From contig CP065018.1 of assembly GCA_016700415.1 (NCBI GenBank), positions 3,765,284-3,829,283 of the forward strand: 64,000 nucleotides of DNA, given 5' to 3'. This DNA comes from Flavobacteriales bacterium. GTDB taxonomy: Bacteria > Bacteroidota > Bacteroidia > Flavobacteriales_F > PHOS-HE28. The translations under genes were made by a program, and so were the position numbers. This document shows positions 55,852-63,794 of this stretch, in pieces. Under the pieces are notes generated by a model, which was given only the letters and a program-made list of their open reading frames with translations, did not search any database and was not told the origin of the DNA. Position 1 is the stretch's first letter; the number at the start of each line of letters is the position of its first letter.

Positions 55852-57267
<1,416 letters not shown>

Positions 57268-57336
57268 AAAAGAGCGTCTCAGAGTTTTACCACAAAAGGG
57301 ACACGTTGATGTCGTAGGCCGGGCGCCTCAACGGCA

Positions 57337-57370
57337 TTATCCGCGTCCATCCGTGTCCATCCGTGGTTCG
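57337..57370. repeat. partial copy of the inner arm of the 17392..17618 MITE-like element
   Basis: ATCCGCGTCCATCCGTGTCCATCCGTGGTTCG vs 17531..17563 CATCCGTGTACATCCGTGTCCATCCGTGGTTCC; no TIRs present here. Confidence 0.6.
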
Positions 57371-57386
57371 TTCTAAAATCGACAAC

Positions 57387-58763
57387 ATGCAACACAAGAC
57401 CATCATCGAGCCCTTCCGCATCAAGAGCGTGGAGCCCATCAGCGTGGGCACCGAAGCGGAGCGCACGCAATACCTGAAGGACGCCCACTACAATCCGTTC
57501 CTGCTGCGATCGGACAATGTGGTGATCGACTTCATGACCGATAGCGGCACCAGCGCCATGAGCGCCCGGCAATGGGCGGGCATGATGGAGGGCGATGAGG
57601 CCTATGCCGGTTCGCGGAGCTGGGAGCGCATGGAGCGGGAAGTGCGGGACCTCACCGGCATGGCGTACATCCTCCCCACGCACCAAGGCCGCGCCGCGGA
57701 ACGCATCATCTATGGCCACTTGGGCGGCCCGGGCAAGGTCTTCATCAGCAACACGCACTTCGATACCACACGCGCCAACATCGAGTTCAGCGGCGCCACC
57801 GCCATCGACATCCCCATCGCCGAAGGGAAGGACACGGCCTTGGAGCATCCGTTCAAGGGCAACATGGACGTGGGCGAGCTGGACCGCTTGCTGAAGGAGC
57901 ACAAGGGCCATGTGGGCGCGGTGATCCTCACGGTGACCAACAACAGCGGAGGCGGCCAGCCGGTGAGCATGGCCAATGCGGAGAGCATCGCCGCGATCTG
58001 CAAGCGGCACGGTGTGCTCTACTTGCTGGATTGCTGCCGCATCGCGGAGAACAGCTGGTTCATCAAGCACCGGGAGGAAGGCATGGAAGGCTTGACCTAT
58101 CGCCAGATCGCGCAACGCATGTTCGCCCTGACCGATGGCGCCGTGATGAGCGCCAAGAAGGACGCGCTGGTGAACATGGGCGGCTTTCTGGCCTTGAAGG
58201 ACGAGGTCTTGGCCGAGGCCTGCATCAACCTCTTGATCATCACGGAGGGCTTTGCGACCTATGGCGGATTGTCCGGCCGCGACATGGAGGCGATCGCGAT
58301 CGGCCTGCAGGAGATCTTCGATCCGCACTATCTGGACTACCGGATCAAGAGCACCCTTTTCCTCGGGAAGAAGATGCACGAGCTGGGCGTTCCGCTGATG
58401 ATGCCCATCGGTGGGCACGCGGTGTACGTGGACGCGAAGAAGCTGTATCCCCACATCCCGCCGCATGAATATCCCGGGCAGGCCCTGGTGGGCGAACTGT
58501 ACAAGCTGGGCGGCATCCGCACGGTGGAGATCGGCTCCGTGATGTTCGGCACCTACAACGCCGACGGCACGCTGAATCCCGCGCCCATGGAGCTGGTGCG
58601 CTTAGCCATTCCGCGCCGGGTGTACACGCAGAGCCACATCGAATACGTGGTGGAGACCTTCGAGGAGATCATGAAGCAGCGCGACCGGGTACGCGGGTTG
58701 AAGATCACCAAGGAGCCGCGTTTCCTGCGCCACTTCACCGCGCACTTCGAGCCATTGACATGA
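57387..58763 (+). CDS. tnaA: tryptophanase (beta-eliminating lyase, TnaA-like paralog)
   Basis: MQHKTIIEPFRIKSVEPI..., NTHFDTTRANIE (TnaA-type vs [11 protein letters not shown]), [13 protein letters not shown]-terminal PRFLRHFTAHFEPL like E. coli TnaA PKVLRHFTAKLKEV. Confidence 0.8.
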   Translation: MQHKTIIEPFRIKSVEPISVGTEAERTQYLKDAHYNPFLLRSDNVVIDFMTDSGTSAMSARQWAGMMEGDEAYAGSRSWERMEREVRDLTGMAYILPTHQGRAAERIIYGHLGGPGKVFISNTHFDTTRANIEFSGATAIDIPIAEGKDTALEHPFKGNMDVGELDRLLKEHKGHVGAVILTVTNNSGGGQPVSMANAESIAAICKRHGVLYLLDCCRIAENSWFIKHREEGMEGLTYRQIAQRMFALTDGAVMSAKKDALVNMGGFLALKDEVLAEACINLLIITEGFATYGGLSGRDMEAIAIGLQEIFDPHYLDYRIKSTLFLGKKMHELGVPLMMPIGGHAVYVDAKKLYPHIPPHEYPGQALVGELYKLGGIRTVEIGSVMFGTYNADGTLNPAPMELVRLAIPRRVYTQSHIEYVVETFEEIMKQRDRVRGLKITKEPRFLRHFTAHFEPLT

Positions 58764-59215
58764 GCAACGGACCGATGGACCGGCCGGTGCGTGTCACCAA
58801 GCGCTTCACCTTCGAGATGGCCCATGCGCTGCGGTGCCACGATGGCCTCTGCGCCCAGATCCATGGGCACTCGTACGTGTTGGACGTTACGTTGATCGGG
58901 AAGCCGCGCAATGAGCCGGAACACCCGAAGGACGGCATGGTGATCGACTTCGCCGAGCTGAAGAAGCTGGTGAATAAGGCCGTGGTGGAGCATTACGACC
59001 ATGCACTGGTGCTGCACGAGAAGGACCGCGACCAGGCCTCCTCCGGCCACGAACTCTTCGGCCGGACGCGCTTCACGCCATGGCAGCCCAGTTGCGAGAA
59101 TGTGCTGCTGGACATCGTGGAGCGCTTGCAGAAGGCACTGCCGGAGAAGGACGCGCTGTACGCCGTCCGCCTTCAGGAAACGGCCACGAGCTGGGCGGAG
59201 TGGGGGCGGGGTTGA
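58760..59215 (+). CDS. queD: 6-carboxy-5,6,7,8-tetrahydropterin synthase / 6-pyruvoyl-tetrahydropterin synthase family
   Basis: VTKRFTFEMAHALRCHDGLCAQIHGHSYVLDVTLIG...GMVIDFAELKKLV...HYDHALVL (Zn-binding CxxxHGH motif). Confidence 0.75.
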   Translation: MSNGPMDRPVRVTKRFTFEMAHALRCHDGLCAQIHGHSYVLDVTLIGKPRNEPEHPKDGMVIDFAELKKLVNKAVVEHYDHALVLHEKDRDQASSGHELFGRTRFTPWQPSCENVLLDIVERLQKALPEKDALYAVRLQETATSWAEWGRG

Positions 59216-59220
59216 TCAGA

Positions 59221-59607
59221 TCAAGCCTTCACGAGCGGCACATCGTATTGCGCGAAGTGCGGGTCGGCCGTGAGCAGTTGCATGCCTTCGGCCTTGGCTT
59301 GGGCGATCAACATTCGGTCGAACGGGTCGCGGTGGTGTAAGGGAAGCTTGGATAGTTCGAGTATATGTGGCATTGTAACGGGCCGGGGAACGAACCCTCC
59401 GTTGGTGAATGACTTGAAGAAATCCTCGATCGGGCTATGGAGTTCCAGCTTCCCGAGCGCATGCTTGATCCCGATCTCCCACAATGATGCAATGCTCACG
59501 AGACATTCATGCTTTGGGTTCTCGATGATCGCTCTAGTGGCAGGGGTGCATTCCCGTTGACCCAGAACGAACCAGAGGAAGACATGGGTGTCCAGCAACA
59601 CCTTCAT
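59221..59607 (-). CDS. vapC: PIN-domain toxin VapC
   Basis: MKVLLDTHVFLWFVLGQREC...IASLWEIGIKHALGKL...DPFDRMLIAQAKAEGMQLLTADPHFAQYDVPLVKA. Confidence 0.8.
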   Translation of the reverse strand: MKVLLDTHVFLWFVLGQRECTPATRAIIENPKHECLVSIASLWEIGIKHALGKLELHSPIEDFFKSFTNGGFVPRPVTMPHILELSKLPLHHRDPFDRMLIAQAKAEGMQLLTADPHFAQYDVPLVKA

Positions 59608-59837
59608 TCCATGTATTCTTTGAAGTCATCAAGCGGGTCATCGAAGTCCTTGGAAATGGTGGCCATGCCTTTGGCGATGCCGAATACACGCGGCTTCTTT
59701 GCGTCGTTATCCTGTGGAACCCCTGCCTGCTTCTTTTGCTCCCATTGTTCCATGAGTGAAGCAATGAAGTCAAGCACCTTCTTCCTCACCTCCTCCGGAA
59801 GTGAGTCGAGCTGGATGTATGGGTCGTGCGTGGCCAT
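59604..59837 (-). CDS. type II antitoxin partnered with VapC (VapB-like)
   Basis: 77 aa, ATGA overlap with vapC; 70% identical to second copy at 62013..62237. Confidence 0.65.
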   Translation of the reverse strand: MATHDPYIQLDSLPEEVRKKVLDFIASLMEQWEQKKQAGVPQDNDAKKPRVFGIAKGMATISKDFDDPLDDFKEYME

Positions 59838-59854
59838 ATTTCAAAGATAGGCGA

Positions 59855-59905
59855 TCAGGACTTCACGAGCGGCACGTTGTAATGAGCGACATTTGGGTCG
59901 ACGGC
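59855..59905 (-). pseudogene. 3' remnant of a second vapC copy
   Basis: Minus-strand ...DPNVAHYNVPLVKS* matches C-terminus of intact VapC (DPHFAQYDVPLVKA*) and is spaced from the upstream antitoxin stop as in the intact pair; upstream sequence unrelated to VapC. Confidence 0.55.
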
Positions 59906-60149
59906 CTTACCGGCGCTCGGCGTAGTGCATGCCGCTCCGAAGTAACGCTGTGCTGCAGTCTGAAGACTGCCTATGGCTCCTGTGCATCTGTCCACTCCGG
60001 GGAGCAGGCCCACCAGTGACCCCTGCCGTTCATTCAGGAACCCATATTCCGGTTGGCAGGGAACACTGGCGGGAGCGGGGGGAAAATGATTGGTAAATGA
60101 TTTACCACTAAATGCCAATGTGCTCCGTTCATATTATTTTTTTAAAAAA

Positions 60150-60851
60150 TTAAACATTTACTCCAAAAAGGTAACCAACTAACGCAGAAAGTACCATTGC
60201 AATTGTTCCCCAAATTGTAATGCGTAAGATAGCTTTTTTTATACTTGACCCACCTGTTTTTGCAGCTGTTGTTCCAAGTATTATTAAGAATATAGTAGTA
60301 AAGCCATACAACCAATATTCCATTCCTTTTACTGGTGCAAATAGAATTACTAAAAGTGGTAAAACACCACCAACAGTAAATGCAGCACCTGATGCTATTG
60401 CAGCTTGAATTGGATTAGCTTGACTTATTTCATTGATGCCTAATTCATCTCTAATGTGAGTTCCTAATGCATCTTCTTCTGTCAATTCAATTGCTACTTG
60501 CATTGCGGTTACTTTTTTAAGTCCACGCTTCTCATAGATTTGAGCCAAAATATTTAGTTCTTCTTTTGGCATTTCTTTGAGTTCTTTTATTTCTCTTTCG
60601 ATGTCTGCTTTTTCTGTATCTGTTTGCGAACTTACAGAAACATACTCGCCTGCTGCCATTGATAAAGCACCTGCTACAAGTCCAGCGACTGTTGCTAACA
60701 ATATTGGTTCTCTTGTCGAACTTGCTGCTGCAACACCAATAGCAAGACTTGAAATAGAAATAATTCCGTCATTTGCCCCCAAAACGGCTGCTCTTAACCA
60801 GTTACTTCGGTGTATGTAATGATTGTCTAAATAGTTGTCGATTGTTATCAT
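60150..60851 (-). CDS. VIT1/CCC1-family (vacuolar iron transporter-like) membrane protein
   Basis: 233 aa; WLRAAVLGANDGIISISSLAIGVAAAS...ATVAGLVAGALSMAAGEYVSVSSQ...; AT-rich codon usage unlike host. Confidence 0.7.
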   Translation of the reverse strand: MITIDNYLDNHYIHRSNWLRAAVLGANDGIISISSLAIGVAAASSTREPILLATVAGLVAGALSMAAGEYVSVSSQTDTEKADIEREIKELKEMPKEELNILAQIYEKRGLKKVTAMQVAIELTEEDALGTHIRDELGINEISQANPIQAAIASGAAFTVGGVLPLLVILFAPVKGMEYWLYGFTTIFLIILGTTAAKTGGSSIKKAILRITIWGTIAMVLSALVGYLFGVNV

Positions 60852-60884
60852 TGTCTTGTTGTTGTCGGGTTGCTTTAAAATTAC

Positions 60885-61016
60885 GCCTAACGGTTTGCAG
60901 CTACCCGAAGGGCGGGATTTTTACCAATAAACCTCATTCGGAGCACTGAACTTTCGGCTACCACAAATGTGTCTGTGGAGCACGAAACCCCGCCTTTTGG
61001 GTAGGTGCTGTTAGCA
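60885..61016 (-). other. integron attC recombination site of the OXA cassette (R''-L''...L'-R')
   Basis: Minus strand: R'' TGCTAAC (61016-61010) - AGCAC - L'' CTACCCAAAAGGCGGGGT ... L' ATCCCGCCCTTCGGGTAG - 9 nt - R' GTTAGGC (60891-60885); R'' is exact complement of cassette-start core G|TTAGCA at 61857-61851. Confidence 0.75.
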
Positions 61017-61026
61017 GCAGCAATTC

Positions 61027-61842
61027 TCATTTGTCAGTCAGTTTAAGGTCGTCAAGTATTAAATAAACAATGTCAATTCGTGCATTTGCAAAGTCCTTGT
61101 TGTTTAAGTCAGCCGATTGAATGCAATTAGCAAAATAATAAACTTTGTTTTCAGTCTCCAAATAGCCAACATACCAACCAACATCTTTGTTGTCTTGTCC
61201 GCCCCAACCAGTTTTTGCTCTTACTACATAGTCCAACGTGTCCTTTGCAATCATTATGTTTTTTACAATGTCAACTGAACGCTGTGAAAAAGGAAGTTGG
61301 TTGTCGTGAAGTCGCTTTAAAAAGTCAATTTGTTGTTTGGGTGAAATACGAAGTCCGCCAGTCAGCCAAAACTTGTCAATGCCGCCTGATGTGTCTGCGT
61401 TGCCATAGTTTGCTTTGTCAAGCCAGTATTTCATTTGCTGTCCGCCTACTCGTCTGGCAAGTTCTTGATAATACCAAACAGTCGAATTTTTGAAAGCTGT
61501 TTTTAAGTCGTGGTCGGTGTTCCAGTTTGGATTTTGTCTGGTTACGCTGTCCCACGGAATTACAAAATTCTCGTCTTTAATTACTCCCGTCTCAAGTCCG
61601 ATAAGAGAGTTACAAATTTTAAAAGTCGAAGCAGGTGAAAAAGTTTGCTCGAACTGGTTTTGGTTGTAAAAAATATAATTGTCGGTTTGAGGGTCATAAA
61701 GCACGAAAGAACCGTTAACATTAAACTGGTCGTAATACTTTTTAAAATCGTTACGAATTTCAGTCGTCTGTTTTTGCTTACAGGCTGTCAGTCCAATAAC
61801 AGCTAAAGTCAATATTAATATGGTCTGTTTCATTGTCGTCAT
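61027..61842 (-). CDS. class D (OXA-type) beta-lactamase, lipoprotein signal
   Basis: 271 aa; signal LTLAVIGLTAC; class D motifs PASTFKI (S-T-F-K), ANYGNAD (Y-G-N), RAKTGWG (K-T-G); low-GC cassette-borne. Confidence 0.85.
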   Translation of the reverse strand: MTTMKQTILILTLAVIGLTACKQKQTTEIRNDFKKYYDQFNVNGSFVLYDPQTDNYIFYNQNQFEQTFSPASTFKICNSLIGLETGVIKDENFVIPWDSVTRQNPNWNTDHDLKTAFKNSTVWYYQELARRVGGQQMKYWLDKANYGNADTSGGIDKFWLTGGLRISPKQQIDFLKRLHDNQLPFSQRSVDIVKNIMIAKDTLDYVVRAKTGWGGQDNKDVGWYVGYLETENKVYYFANCIQSADLNNKDFANARIDIVYLILDDLKLTDK

Positions 61843-62012
61843 ATTGTTGCTGCTAACTAGTCGGTTGACGCTATATGTGGTTTATTTCCGGACTTGGTTT
61901 GTGCTTGGAGTTGGGTTTATCGCACTATTTGGGCATGTAAAGCCCAATAGGCTTTCGGTCTCCGAAGGTCGTCCAATGTAGCGCAGCTTTGCTGTTACCC
62001 GATGTGAGCGTT

Positions 62013-62237
62013 TCATTCCATGTACTCCTTGAAGTCATCCAGGGGCTCGTCGAAATCATCTGGAATAGTTGCCATTCCTTTGGCCAACCCGGCGATCAGC
62101 TTTTTCTTTGGCGACACTTCTTGTGCTGGGTTATTCCGCTCCCATTCCACCATCAGTTCCGTGATGAACGCAAGCACCTTCTTCCTCACCTCCTCCGGGA
62201 GTGAGTCGAGCTGGATGTATGGGTCGTGGGCGGCCAT
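62013..62237 (-). CDS. type II antitoxin (VapB-like), orphan second copy
   Basis: MAAHDPYIQLDSLPEEVRKKVLAFITELMVEWERNN...GMATIPDDFDEPLDDFKEYME; cognate vapC start replaced by unrelated sequence. Confidence 0.6.
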   Translation of the reverse strand: MAAHDPYIQLDSLPEEVRKKVLAFITELMVEWERNNPAQEVSPKKKLIAGLAKGMATIPDDFDEPLDDFKEYME

Positions 62238-62292
62238 ATTTCAAAGATAGGCCGATCAGCTCCAAGGCTGCTTGGAGCGTGGACTTACAACC

Positions 62293-62682
62293 TCACACCC
62301 TTTCCACCACGCGCTTCAAGGCATCGCGCACTTGTGTCGCGAGGGGCTCTATGGCCGGATTGTCCACGGCGCTCATGGCGGCCGCGGGGTCGATGGCCGC
62401 CACTTGATGCTTTCCGTCGGGCAGTTGCCGGAGGATGACATTGCACGGTAGCATGGTGCTGATGAGCGGCTCCAAGGTGACCACCTGGTCCGCGAACACC
62501 GGATTGCAGGCGCCCAGGATCAGGTGCGGCAAATGGTCCTTGTTCAGCTTTTTCTTCAATGTGGCCTGCAGGTCGATCTCCGTGAGCACACCGAAGCCTT
62601 CGGTCTTCAGCGCTTCCACGGTGCGTTCCTTCAAGGTGGCCATGTCGGTGTTGGCGATGGTACGGGTGATGGCGTAGTTCAT
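62293..62682 (-). CDS. DUF302 domain protein
   Basis: MNYAITRTIANTDMATLKERTVEALKTEGFGVLTEIDLQATLKKKLNKDHLPHLILGACNP. Confidence 0.65.
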   Translation of the reverse strand: MNYAITRTIANTDMATLKERTVEALKTEGFGVLTEIDLQATLKKKLNKDHLPHLILGACNPVFADQVVTLEPLISTMLPCNVILRQLPDGKHQVAAIDPAAAMSAVDNPAIEPLATQVRDALKRVVERV

Positions 62683-62786
62683 GGTGATGTGGGTTGATCC
62701 CATACGGGGATGTGCAGGTGGTACAAAGGTCCGCCGGATACAGCGGACGGTATGTGATGAAGGTCACGGTTGCGAGGGATCCCGCT

Positions 62787-63794
62787 TCAGCCGCCGATGG
62801 CCTGCATGGCCCGGTTCCCGGTATGGTTCCCCGGATCGCTGAACTCCTCCAAGGATTCCATACCGCCGCGTGCCTTCTTCTTATGAAGGACGTTGCTGCG
62901 GATCAGCTCGGTGATGTCCTCTCCCTTGCGGTAGGCGCTCAACAGGTCGCTTTCCGTGCCGGAGAAGAGGCAGTTTTTCATGCGGCCGTCGGCGGTAAGG
63001 CGCAGCCGGTTGCACGAATCGCAGAACGGGTTGGTCACCGTGCTGATGACCGCGAACGATCCCTGGTGCCCTTTGATCCGGTAGTGTTTGGCCGTGTCGT
63101 GGGGGCCGTCGATCATCCGTTCGATGTTGTCCGCTCCGAACCGGGTCCCCACCGTGTCAAGGACCTCCTGCAAGGAGACGCCCTTGCTCCAGTCCCACTT
63201 GTTCCCGTCAAAGGGCATGAACTCGATGAAACGGACCCGGACGCCCTCGTCGGCGGTCCATTGCACAAAGTCGCCGATCTCGTCGTCGTTCGTGCCGCGG
63301 ATCAATACCGTGTTCACCTTCACGTCGAAGCCCCTGTCCATCAGCAGGCGGATGTTGCCAATCACCTCCTTGTAATGGTCGCGCCGCGTGATCCGCTGCA
63401 TGCGTTCCGGCCTCAAGGTGTCCAAGCTCACGTTGACATTGCGGACCCCGTATCGTTCGAACACGTCGATGAAGCGGTCCACCAGTACGCCGTTGGTGGT
63501 GATGGCGAGCTCTATGGGCAGCTTGGACAGGCCCTCGATGATCTCCGCCGCATCGTTCCGCACCAGCGGCTCGCCACCGGTCAGGCGGATCTTGCGCACG
63601 CCCATGGAAACGAAGGTGCCTGCGATGGCAAGCAGTTCCTCCTGCCGCATGAACTCCTCCCGGGGCCGAAGTGCGATACCCTCCTCGGGCATGCAATAGA
63701 AGCACCGCATGTTGCAGCGCTCCGTAAGGGAGATGCGCAGGTAGTCGTGCCTTCTTCCGAAAGTATCTGTCAACAGGGTGCTGCGGTCGGTCAT
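62787..63794 (-). CDS. moaA: GTP 3',8-cyclase (molybdenum cofactor biosynthesis protein A)
   Basis: LRISLTERCNMRCFYCMP (radical SAM CxxxCxxC), ...IRLTGGEPL..., C-terminal FCDSCNRLRLTADG second cluster. Confidence 0.85.
   Translation of the reverse strand: MTDRSTLLTDTFGRRHDYLRISLTERCNMRCFYCMPEEGIALRPREEFMRQEELLAIAGTFVSMGVRKIRLTGGEPLVRNDAAEIIEGLSKLPIELAITTNGVLVDRFIDVFERYGVRNVNVSLDTLRPERMQRITRRDHYKEVIGNIRLLMDRGFDVKVNTVLIRGTNDDEIGDFVQWTADEGVRVRFIEFMPFDGNKWDWSKGVSLQEVLDTVGTRFGADNIERMIDGPHDTAKHYRIKGHQGSFAVISTVTNPFCDSCNRLRLTADGRMKNCLFSGTESDLLSAYRKGEDITELIRSNVLHKKKARGGMESLEEFSDPGNHTGNRAMQAIGG

Follow-up and report, generated by a model that had tools for sequence, protein, structure and literature searches.

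A probable integron cassette-array fragment carrying an OXA-type class D beta-lactamase gene at a VapB-PIN toxin-antitoxin locus of a wastewater Flavobacteriales chromosome

We analysed a stretch of 64,000 nucleotides from contig CP065018.1 of a Flavobacteriales bacterium (positions 3,765,284 to 3,829,283; hereafter the window, in whose own numbering all coordinates are given) and found that it contains a 1.93-kb island, 60083-62011, of 38.9% GC in a chromosome of ~62% GC. The host belongs to an uncultured Flavobacteriales lineage of activated sludge and wastewater. The island carries a gene for a predicted OXA-type class D beta-lactamase (OXA) and a gene for a predicted metal transporter (VIT). 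These genes are part of a minus-strand series that follows a toxin-antitoxin (TA) module, TA1, and consists of the remnant of a second PIN toxin gene (PIN2'), a GC-rich segment (S174), VIT, OXA, the antitoxin gene VapB2, DUF302 and MoaA. The features of the island itself are as follows (a bar within a sequence marks a cassette crossover; L013 is the closest relative of the host and L107 a cassette array, both described below).

60080..60083, no strand: left island junction, with GGG (60080-60082) common to host L013 and L107 (ATCATTTTCCC)
60083..60132, minus strand: first 50 nt (MNGAHWHLVVNHLPIIF) of a gene for a 164-aa membrane protein, containing a palindrome
60083..60890, minus strand: truncated VIT cassette, first 808 nt, from the crossover G|TTAGGC (T at 60890) to the left junction
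60150..60851, minus strand: VIT1/CCC1-family Fe2+/Mn2+ transporter gene (PF01988), intact, 233 aa
60885..61016, minus strand: OXA attC, 132 nt, with R''=TGCTAAC (61016->61010) and R'=GTTAGGC (60891->60885)
60891..61856, minus strand: complete OXA gene cassette, 966 nt, from |TTAGCAG to ...AAACCG|
61027..61842, minus strand: OXA-type class D beta-lactamase gene, 271 aa, or 268 aa from the second ATG
61857..62011, minus strand: spacer, 155 nt, GC 0.49, not supported as an attC

The OXA protein scores 278.3 bits against NCBIfam NF012161 (cut-off 250), which places it in class D, and its translation contains STFK, STV, YGN and KTG, that is, all of the class D catalytic motifs (S-x-x-K, S-x-V, Y-G-N, K-T-G). 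By family profile and motifs it is thus a predicted class D beta-lactamase. Its best match in the PDB is 6nhs (E 2.9e-70) and it carries a lipoprotein-like signal peptide (LTAC). The protein falls below every named OXA subfamily cut-off and is at most 45.5% identical to the plasmid-borne OXAs of PLSDB. The ATG is located only 14 nt after the cassette boundary, a distance so short that the cassette would have no promoter of its own.

For the recognition of attC sites, we built a covariance model (R1) from nine attCs of 131-136 nt found in other arrays (L100 6827-6960, 7657-7789, 9114-9249 and 9832-9962; L106 5851-5984, 6818-6951 and 7763-7893; L107 4175-4309 and 6789-6921), with the sequence of the window left out. 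RNAalifold gives 14 pairs for these nine sites, 13 of which show compensatory changes. The OXA attC (minus strand, 60884-61016 in this alignment) matches R1 along its full 134 positions with 93.8 bits (E 4e-21), and is the only attC that the model finds in the 64-kb window. Its bottom (+) strand folds with -32.3 kcal/mol and a z score of -3.2. The model also recovers untrained and divergent attCs in L107, L100 and L115, at 17.6-34.9 bits, and its sensitivity is moderate, with one bona fide site of L107 missed.

Relatives of OXA that are 75-92% identical are abundant in metagenomes, and their alignments to the window end at the cassette boundaries. In L100-L105 (87% nucleotide identity) homology begins at 61856 and reaches 60886, a little beyond the 3′ crossover at 60891, while in L106 (84%) and L117-L120 (80%) it starts at 61857/61856 and stops slightly past the stop codon. 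The 5′ boundary reads |TTAGCAG, |TTAGCAA or |TTAGGTG across these three groups of loci, and the 3′ end is also common to L100-L105. The flanks of OXA differ in every context compared, that is, in at least three unrelated contexts. As judged from its attC and from its behaviour as a discrete mobile unit, OXA is a genuine integron cassette.

The attCs of 131-136 nt belong to arrays whose small genes all point the same way, and no integrase was found in the flanks that were fetched. In L115 (164-14078), the OXA relative (85% nucleotide identity) lies within a long same-orientation run of small genes, among them those for a metallo-beta-lactamase-fold protein, glyoxalase, GNAT and RibD_C proteins and an Arr-like rifampin ADP-ribosyltransferase; R1 finds an attC there at positions 1-118, cut by the contig end. 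In L117-L120 (for example L117 9978-10830), OXA is present at 80% nucleotide identity with the boundary A|TTAGCAG kept and the attC gone, and the next gene begins 19 nt past the OXA stop, which looks like a fused or attC-less cassette derivative. A neighbouring gene of L117-L120 has a type IX secretion system (Por_Secre_tail) domain, which points to Bacteroidota.

The OXA unit resembles the OXA cassettes of mobile integrons (blaOXA-10, blaOXA-2 and blaOXA-1, class 1) in being a promoterless class D open reading frame followed by an attC and bounded by G|TT crossovers. It differs from them in the divergence of the enzyme noted above, in the lack of a class 1 context and in its attC, which belongs to the 131-136-nt family of environmental, apparently Bacteroidota-type arrays.

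The second gene of the island matches Pfam PF01988 with 223.1 bits (gathering cut-off 28.1) over profile positions 1-214 of 214, and its product is a predicted member of the VIT1/CCC1 metal transporter family, with the transported substrate likewise predicted from sequence. It is 89-95% identical to proteins from many Bacteroidota, and behind these homologs there always comes a conserved gene whose product, a membrane protein of 162-164 aa, is weakly similar to DUF2231. An earlier note on this DNA, made by a model that saw only the letters and the open reading frames, had observed that VIT is placed like a second cassette after the OXA attC and that no attC pair follows it. The placement is as described, with VIT starting 33 nt after R' GTTAGGC (60891->60885). 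The lack of an attC 3′ of VIT also holds in a relaxed covariance-model search (R1, filters off, E up to 10), which found none in the window.

The explanation comes from L107 (ENA ERZ27299002 k141_419269), where a complete unit consists of TTAGGCGTAATTTTAAG..., VIT, the 164-aa gene and then a 135-nt attC. The window and L107 agree in the cassette start, CG|TTAGGCGTAATTTTAAG, and in gene order, and their nucleotide identity is 84% (L107 2903-3723), with the alignment beginning at the cassette boundary. The R'' of the L107 VIT-cassette attC, GCCTAAC, is the exact complement of the cassette start GTTAGGC, and successive R''/R' pairs of the neighbouring L107 cassettes match likewise. Because this attC complements the start of its own cassette and its array neighbours pair in the same way, the native VIT cassette is, on the sequence of L107, a two-gene cassette (VIT plus the 164-aa membrane protein).

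In the window copy, unlike in L107, the 164-aa gene is incomplete and the 135-nt attC is gone. The 66 nt that follow VIT in the window are the intergenic spacer and the first 50 nt of the partner gene; the partner-gene stretch is 100% identical over 55 nt to L107 and over 50 nt to L093, in both of which the gene has its full length. The first 53 nt of the gene are identical in L107, and the window copy stops 50-53 nt into it. VIT therefore lacks an attC because its cassette is cut at 60080-60083, within the second gene. The unit retains its 5′ crossover boundary, G|TTAGGC, and misses its own 3′ attC; as read from the sequence, it is a truncated cassette and not a functional one.

This result favours one of the two options that the earlier note had left for the VIT half, a truncated array end, with the L107 copy retaining what the window copy has lost 50 nt into the partner gene; the other, a different mobilisation mechanism, is not needed. 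The weak likeness to the start of the OXA attC that had been seen 3′ of VIT (AAC-GGAGCAC) turns out to be the start codon and codons 2-5 (ATG AAC GGA GCA CAT) of the truncated gene. The suggestion that such a transporter is unusual cargo was overstated, as VIT and its partner form a complete cassette in at least one other array (L107).

VIT could alternatively have been resident, or have been acquired independently, with OXA alone inserted beside it, and VIT with the 164-aa gene is indeed an ordinary chromosomal pair in many Bacteroidota (L093-L099). We regard this as very improbable, since no host relative examined has VIT at the locus, the GC of the gene is 0.37 as against 0.62 for the genome, the G|TTAGGC boundary that it shares with the L107 cassette forms its 5′ end, and the partner gene is truncated precisely at the host junction.

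A perfect 17-nt palindrome, TGGTAAATGATTTACCA, is located at 60091-60107, and the earlier note had placed the island boundary exactly on it. The palindrome is there and the GC drop is nearby, but comparison with L013 and L107 puts the junction at 60080-60083, which is 8-11 nt to the left. In the alignments, identity to L107 reaches 60080 and identity to the island-free L013 reaches 60082, leaving a 3-nt GGG/CCC overlap, and position 60083 is where purely foreign sequence starts. Within the first 50 nt of the truncated 164-aa gene, the palindrome encodes VVNHLP. It is unchanged in L093 and L107 and has one substitution in L094-L099, with no boundary at that place. Furthermore, four perfect palindromes with arms of 8 nt and a loop of 0-3 nt occur in the window, about one for each loop length, which is the chance expectation for 64 kb.

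We find it scarcely credible that this palindrome served as the recombination or target site of the island end and that the VIT half moved by a non-cassette mechanism. Its closeness to the junction speaks for such a role, and what argues against it is that the palindrome is coding sequence within the foreign DNA, conserved where nothing ends and of a kind occurring at the chance rate, and that the VIT segment starts exactly at a cassette crossover. From these comparisons of sequence, its position near the GC break is a coincidence of coding sequence, with no role as a boundary or in recombination. The left junction would instead have arisen by illegitimate recombination or deletion at the 3-nt CCC/GGG microhomology and not by an integrase.

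For the distribution of the island, relatives were taken from a scan of one genome per species, in which L013 is the closest at ~95% nucleotide identity to the window. L013 has PTPS, a degenerate PIN 3′ stub, S174 and DUF302, and is without TA1, VIT, OXA and VapB2. The sister species L015 and L016 have TA1 only, and in L036 PTPS lies directly beside DUF302. VIT without OXA, the arrangement in relatives that the earlier note had raised as a challenge to a common origin, was not seen, with both genes missing from L013, L015, L016 and L036. The GC profile falls from 0.62-0.64 to 0.26-0.39 near 60083 and comes back up near 62011, with 0.389 for 60084-62006 against 0.616 in the flanking host sequence. 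Both the low GC and the absence of the two genes from relatives agree with the foreign origin that had been proposed, and the recovery of GC that had been placed near 62000 is seen in the profile near 62011.

Within the lineage itself, exact-protein look-ups with OXA, VIT, VapB2 and DUF302 led to 22-23 contigs read for each, from NCBI metagenome-assembled genomes (MAGs), ENA, JGI and Logan. Every lineage contig read carries both genes in the same gene order, contigs of 0.2-1.7 Mb included, and the 12 that we compared closely share no less than 99.5% identity with the window over 9 kb. No island-free variant and no variant with an intact second TA module was found by exact look-ups of VapB2, of DUF302 and of a 97%-identical VapB2, the structure being the same throughout. 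The island is real and fixed in the lineage. The sharp GC contrast and the metagenome-assembled source could have suggested a chimeric assembly or a binning artefact, to which we give practically no credence: identical junctions recur in independent assemblies from different projects and assemblers, including long-read contigs of 0.2-1.7 Mb.

With blastn, the island gave just distant VIT matches, at a coverage of 8-9%, in PLSDB; an Rfam E-value scan of 58700-62800 gave nothing relevant, and in the literature we found nothing specific to this locus.

A search for an integron platform was empty. With IntI1 as the query, tblastn gave no integrase at E up to 1 in the 64-kb window, the fetched loci and the 10 kb past the window end, and no complete integron with intI beside an array was found in the window and fetched flanks. 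We know of no general model for attI sites. A single attC and an attC cluster that lack an integron-integrase are termed SALIN and CALIN, respectively (Cury et al. 2016, PMC4889954; PMC9024848; bioRxiv 10.1101/2022.09.11.507474). The single attC of the window makes the locus a SALIN, and the CALIN default threshold of 2 is not reached unless a degenerate spacer is counted. The island is like these elements in that its genuine attC is chromosomal and has neither an intI found nor an attI recognised close by, in being small and without flanking transposases, and in adjoining a resident promoter. It differs from them in the physical truncation of its second cassette within a gene and in its Flavobacteriales host, integron elements being nearly absent from Bacteroidetes isolate genomes according to the IntegronFinder 2.0 study (PMC9024848). 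The island is a fresh example of an already known type, the cassette remnant without an integrase (SALIN/CALIN).

Taken together, these results make it highly probable that the island is a fragment of an integron cassette array, fixed in a high-GC Flavobacteriales chromosome with no integron platform nearby. The source would be a low-GC Bacteroidota-type cassette array, and the fragment, in minus-strand order, would comprise the 155-nt spacer, the complete promoterless OXA cassette with its attC and the first 808 nt of the VIT cassette. It would fill the slot that the toxin gene had in a second, tandem VapB-PIN module. It could have come as a linear array fragment in one integration event, illegitimate or by one-sided homology, or by an integrase insertion at a genomic GTT ("attG") that was followed by a deletion.

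De Vries and Wackernagel reportedly described, in 2002, homology-facilitated illegitimate recombination of foreign DNA. The island would be similar to the products of homology- or microhomology-mediated illegitimate recombination in having, as its junction, a short GC-rich CCC/GGG located in a gene and bearing no site-specific signature. It would differ from the homology-facilitated kind in that it shows no demonstrated homology anchor on the other side.

The features that surround the island, and on which the question of the toxin-gene slot depends, are as follows.

58760-59215, plus strand: PTPS, the sole plus-strand gene around the island
59221-59837, minus strand: TA1, VapB(DUF2281)-PIN toxin-antitoxin module
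59853..59909, minus strand: PIN2', last 57 nt of the second PIN (VapC) toxin gene, direct repeat D3, 79% identical to the 3′ end of PIN1
59910..60082, no strand: S174, GC-rich host segment, 173 nt, GC 0.64, 95% identical in the island-free L013
62012..62016, minus strand: ATGAA, sole 5′ remnant of PIN2, overlapping the VapB2 stop; direct repeat D2 with TA1 ends here
62013..62237, minus strand: VapB2, orphan DUF2281/VapB antitoxin (PF10047; NCBIfam TA_VapB 70.6 bits, cut-off 60)
62238-62252, minus strand: TA promoter region, including the -7 consensus TATCTTTG (62249->62242)

The two TA units (59219-59852, and 59853-59909 together with 62012-62252) repeat each other in tandem and in the same direction, and the 19 nt of the promoter block upstream of VapB1 and of VapB2 are identical. 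In the second VapBC module, the antitoxin gene is whole and the toxin gene is reduced to ATGAA and its last 14 codons; accordingly, a tblastn match of PIN1 to PIN2' is confined to the last 14 aa, DPNVAHYNVPLVKS. The two PIN2 remnants are now 2.1 kb apart, and the intact antitoxin VapB2 is an orphan. When the cassettes are taken out (62016-61857 joined to 60083-59855), the distance from the VapB2 stop to the PIN2 stop is 389 nt, as compared with 387 nt for PIN1, which is maybe a coincidence.

The position of the cassettes relative to VapB2 has consequences for their expression. The nearest promoter-like element upstream of the OXA cassette is the VapB2 promoter, and its TATCTTTG is the only full TAnnTTTG (Bacteroidota -7) motif on the minus strand between 60000 and 62320. 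OXA would be read through from the antitoxin promoter, which would play the part of the integron promoter Pc, and VapB2, the spacer, OXA and possibly VIT would be cotranscribed from it. The VIT leader contains a conserved TAATTTTA motif (TAAyTTTA element), a possible Bacteroidota -7 promoter element, so VIT may also be driven by its own promoter. On the minus strand, TATCTTTG occurs at 62242-62249 and 59842-59849, 4 nt before each VapB ATG, and because the consensus is this close to the start codon, the antitoxin mRNA is suggested to be leaderless or nearly so.

On the right-hand side of the island, the 155-nt spacer leads to OXA through the junction ...GACTAG|TTAGCAG. Its ends weakly resemble attC arms (GGGTAACAGCAAAG... 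and ...CAACCGACTAG|TT). As an attC, the spacer was rejected: R1 gives no match to it (E up to 10, filters off), its folds have z scores of -0.5 and -1.0, and its arm score is -5.3 as compared with -14.9 for the OXA attC, on an arm-pairing scan that is crude and unspecific in GC-rich DNA (173-190 pairs at or below -10 kcal/mol per strand) and is used for ranking within the island only. No homolog of the spacer was found in any fetched locus, a single 22-mer scan of the metagenome collection returned two contigs that are both from the host, and tblastn and alignment showed no PIN coding similarity in it. It may be what is left, in degenerate form, of the attC of a lost upstream cassette, or the remnant of an attI-like site, or it may be target DNA.

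The last of these candidates belongs to a different account, in which an integrase acting in trans inserted the cassette or cassettes at an attG (GWT) site in or near PIN2 and a later deletion took the 3′ part of VIT and some of the target, the spacer being target DNA. Integrases can place cassettes at GWT sites of a genome, where a resident promoter close by allows their expression, and the outcome is a SALIN (Loot et al., bioRxiv 10.1101/2022.09.11.507474), all of which suits this account. The insert does lie directly downstream of a resident promoter, and the spacer/OXA junction is a precise crossover at GTT beside what is, by model, not an attC, which is compatible with such an insertion and is no proof of it. 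Against this, the spacer is missing from L013, L015 and L016 and has no PIN coding similarity, so that it is not demonstrably host DNA; the predicted distal junction (attC...G|TT-target) is lost and its hallmark is not visible; the IntI1 search of the window and fetched loci revealed no integrase gene; and two events are required. We consider this account possible but improbable. That the cassettes were captured outside any integron at an "attG" GTT within the toxin gene, with the antitoxin promoter as a surrogate Pc, is a claim we rate as unlikely, a little below the trans-acting integrase itself.

Several points weigh against our preferred explanation, a fixed fragment of a cassette array. 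The integrase query was a single class 1 IntI sequence, applied to the window and the fetched flanks only. The spacer is without a homolog or a supported structure, for which reason the right-hand junction is only tentatively placed and more than one mode of arrival is conceivable. S174 lies between PIN2' and the island and is also found in L013, for which reason the history of the TA locus (duplication, deletion and ancestral side) is only partly reconstructed. The extra DNA relative to L013 spans 60083..62269 and contains the island, VapB2 with its promoter and an 18-nt stretch like the PIN 3′ end; since VapB2 is included, it may not be a resident gene and may have entered with the cassettes, or a loss may have occurred in L013. 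Finally, transcription of the cassettes from the VapB2 promoter is proposed from geometry and a match to a motif.

As a cassette-array fragment, the island has a modest general interest and a more local one for resistance-gene ecology and for cassette traffic in Bacteroidota. A class D beta-lactamase lineage without a name moves as an integron cassette among wastewater bacteria, and its OXA is now a fixed chromosomal gene in a Flavobacteriales lineage from many treatment-plant samples, which is relevant to the tracking of "latent" resistance genes. The attC family and its integrase-less arrays suggest that cassette traffic in environmental Bacteroidota is under-described. If the capture at an attG were true, the 131-136-nt attC family and its arrays would be circulating in environmental members of a phylum thought to be nearly integron-free. 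For annotation, the locus teaches that cassettes can hold two genes, that a missing attC can simply reflect truncation, and that a palindrome beside a GC break need not be a recombination site.

The host segment S174 lies between PTPS and DUF302 in L013 and shows no PIN homology by tblastn and alignment. It contains a strong GC-rich hairpin at 60010-60072, with arms CCACCAGTG..CCCTGCC and GGCAGGG..CACTGGCGG, and the fold of 60000-60152 (minus strand) has a z score of -3.7. The hairpin is shared with L013 and stops 8 nt short of the foreign junction, with a GGGGGG run after it; hairpin and run may constitute a fragile or slippage-prone site. We rejected S174 plus spacer as a diverged PIN2, as tblastn and global alignment found similarity at the ends only, with an alignment score the same as for shuffled sequence. 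S174 was also rejected as a degenerate duplicate of the PTPS 3′ end, the similarity being suggestive only in the last ~40 nt; a duplicate of this kind does exist in L015.

That duplicate is found in L015 and L016 (12459-12624), where TA1 is followed by a ~130-nt copy of the PTPS 3′ end, as if the TA insertion had pushed the end of PTPS aside and then replaced it. The intergenic region between PTPS and DUF302 is different in each relative examined and behaves as a hotspot. Further upstream in the window, tandem paralogs of a beta-eliminating lyase (tryptophanase / tyrosine phenol-lyase) with ~45% mutual identity occupy 55885-57267 and 57363-58763, a pair (55885-58763) that is kept across related Flavobacteriales MAGs.

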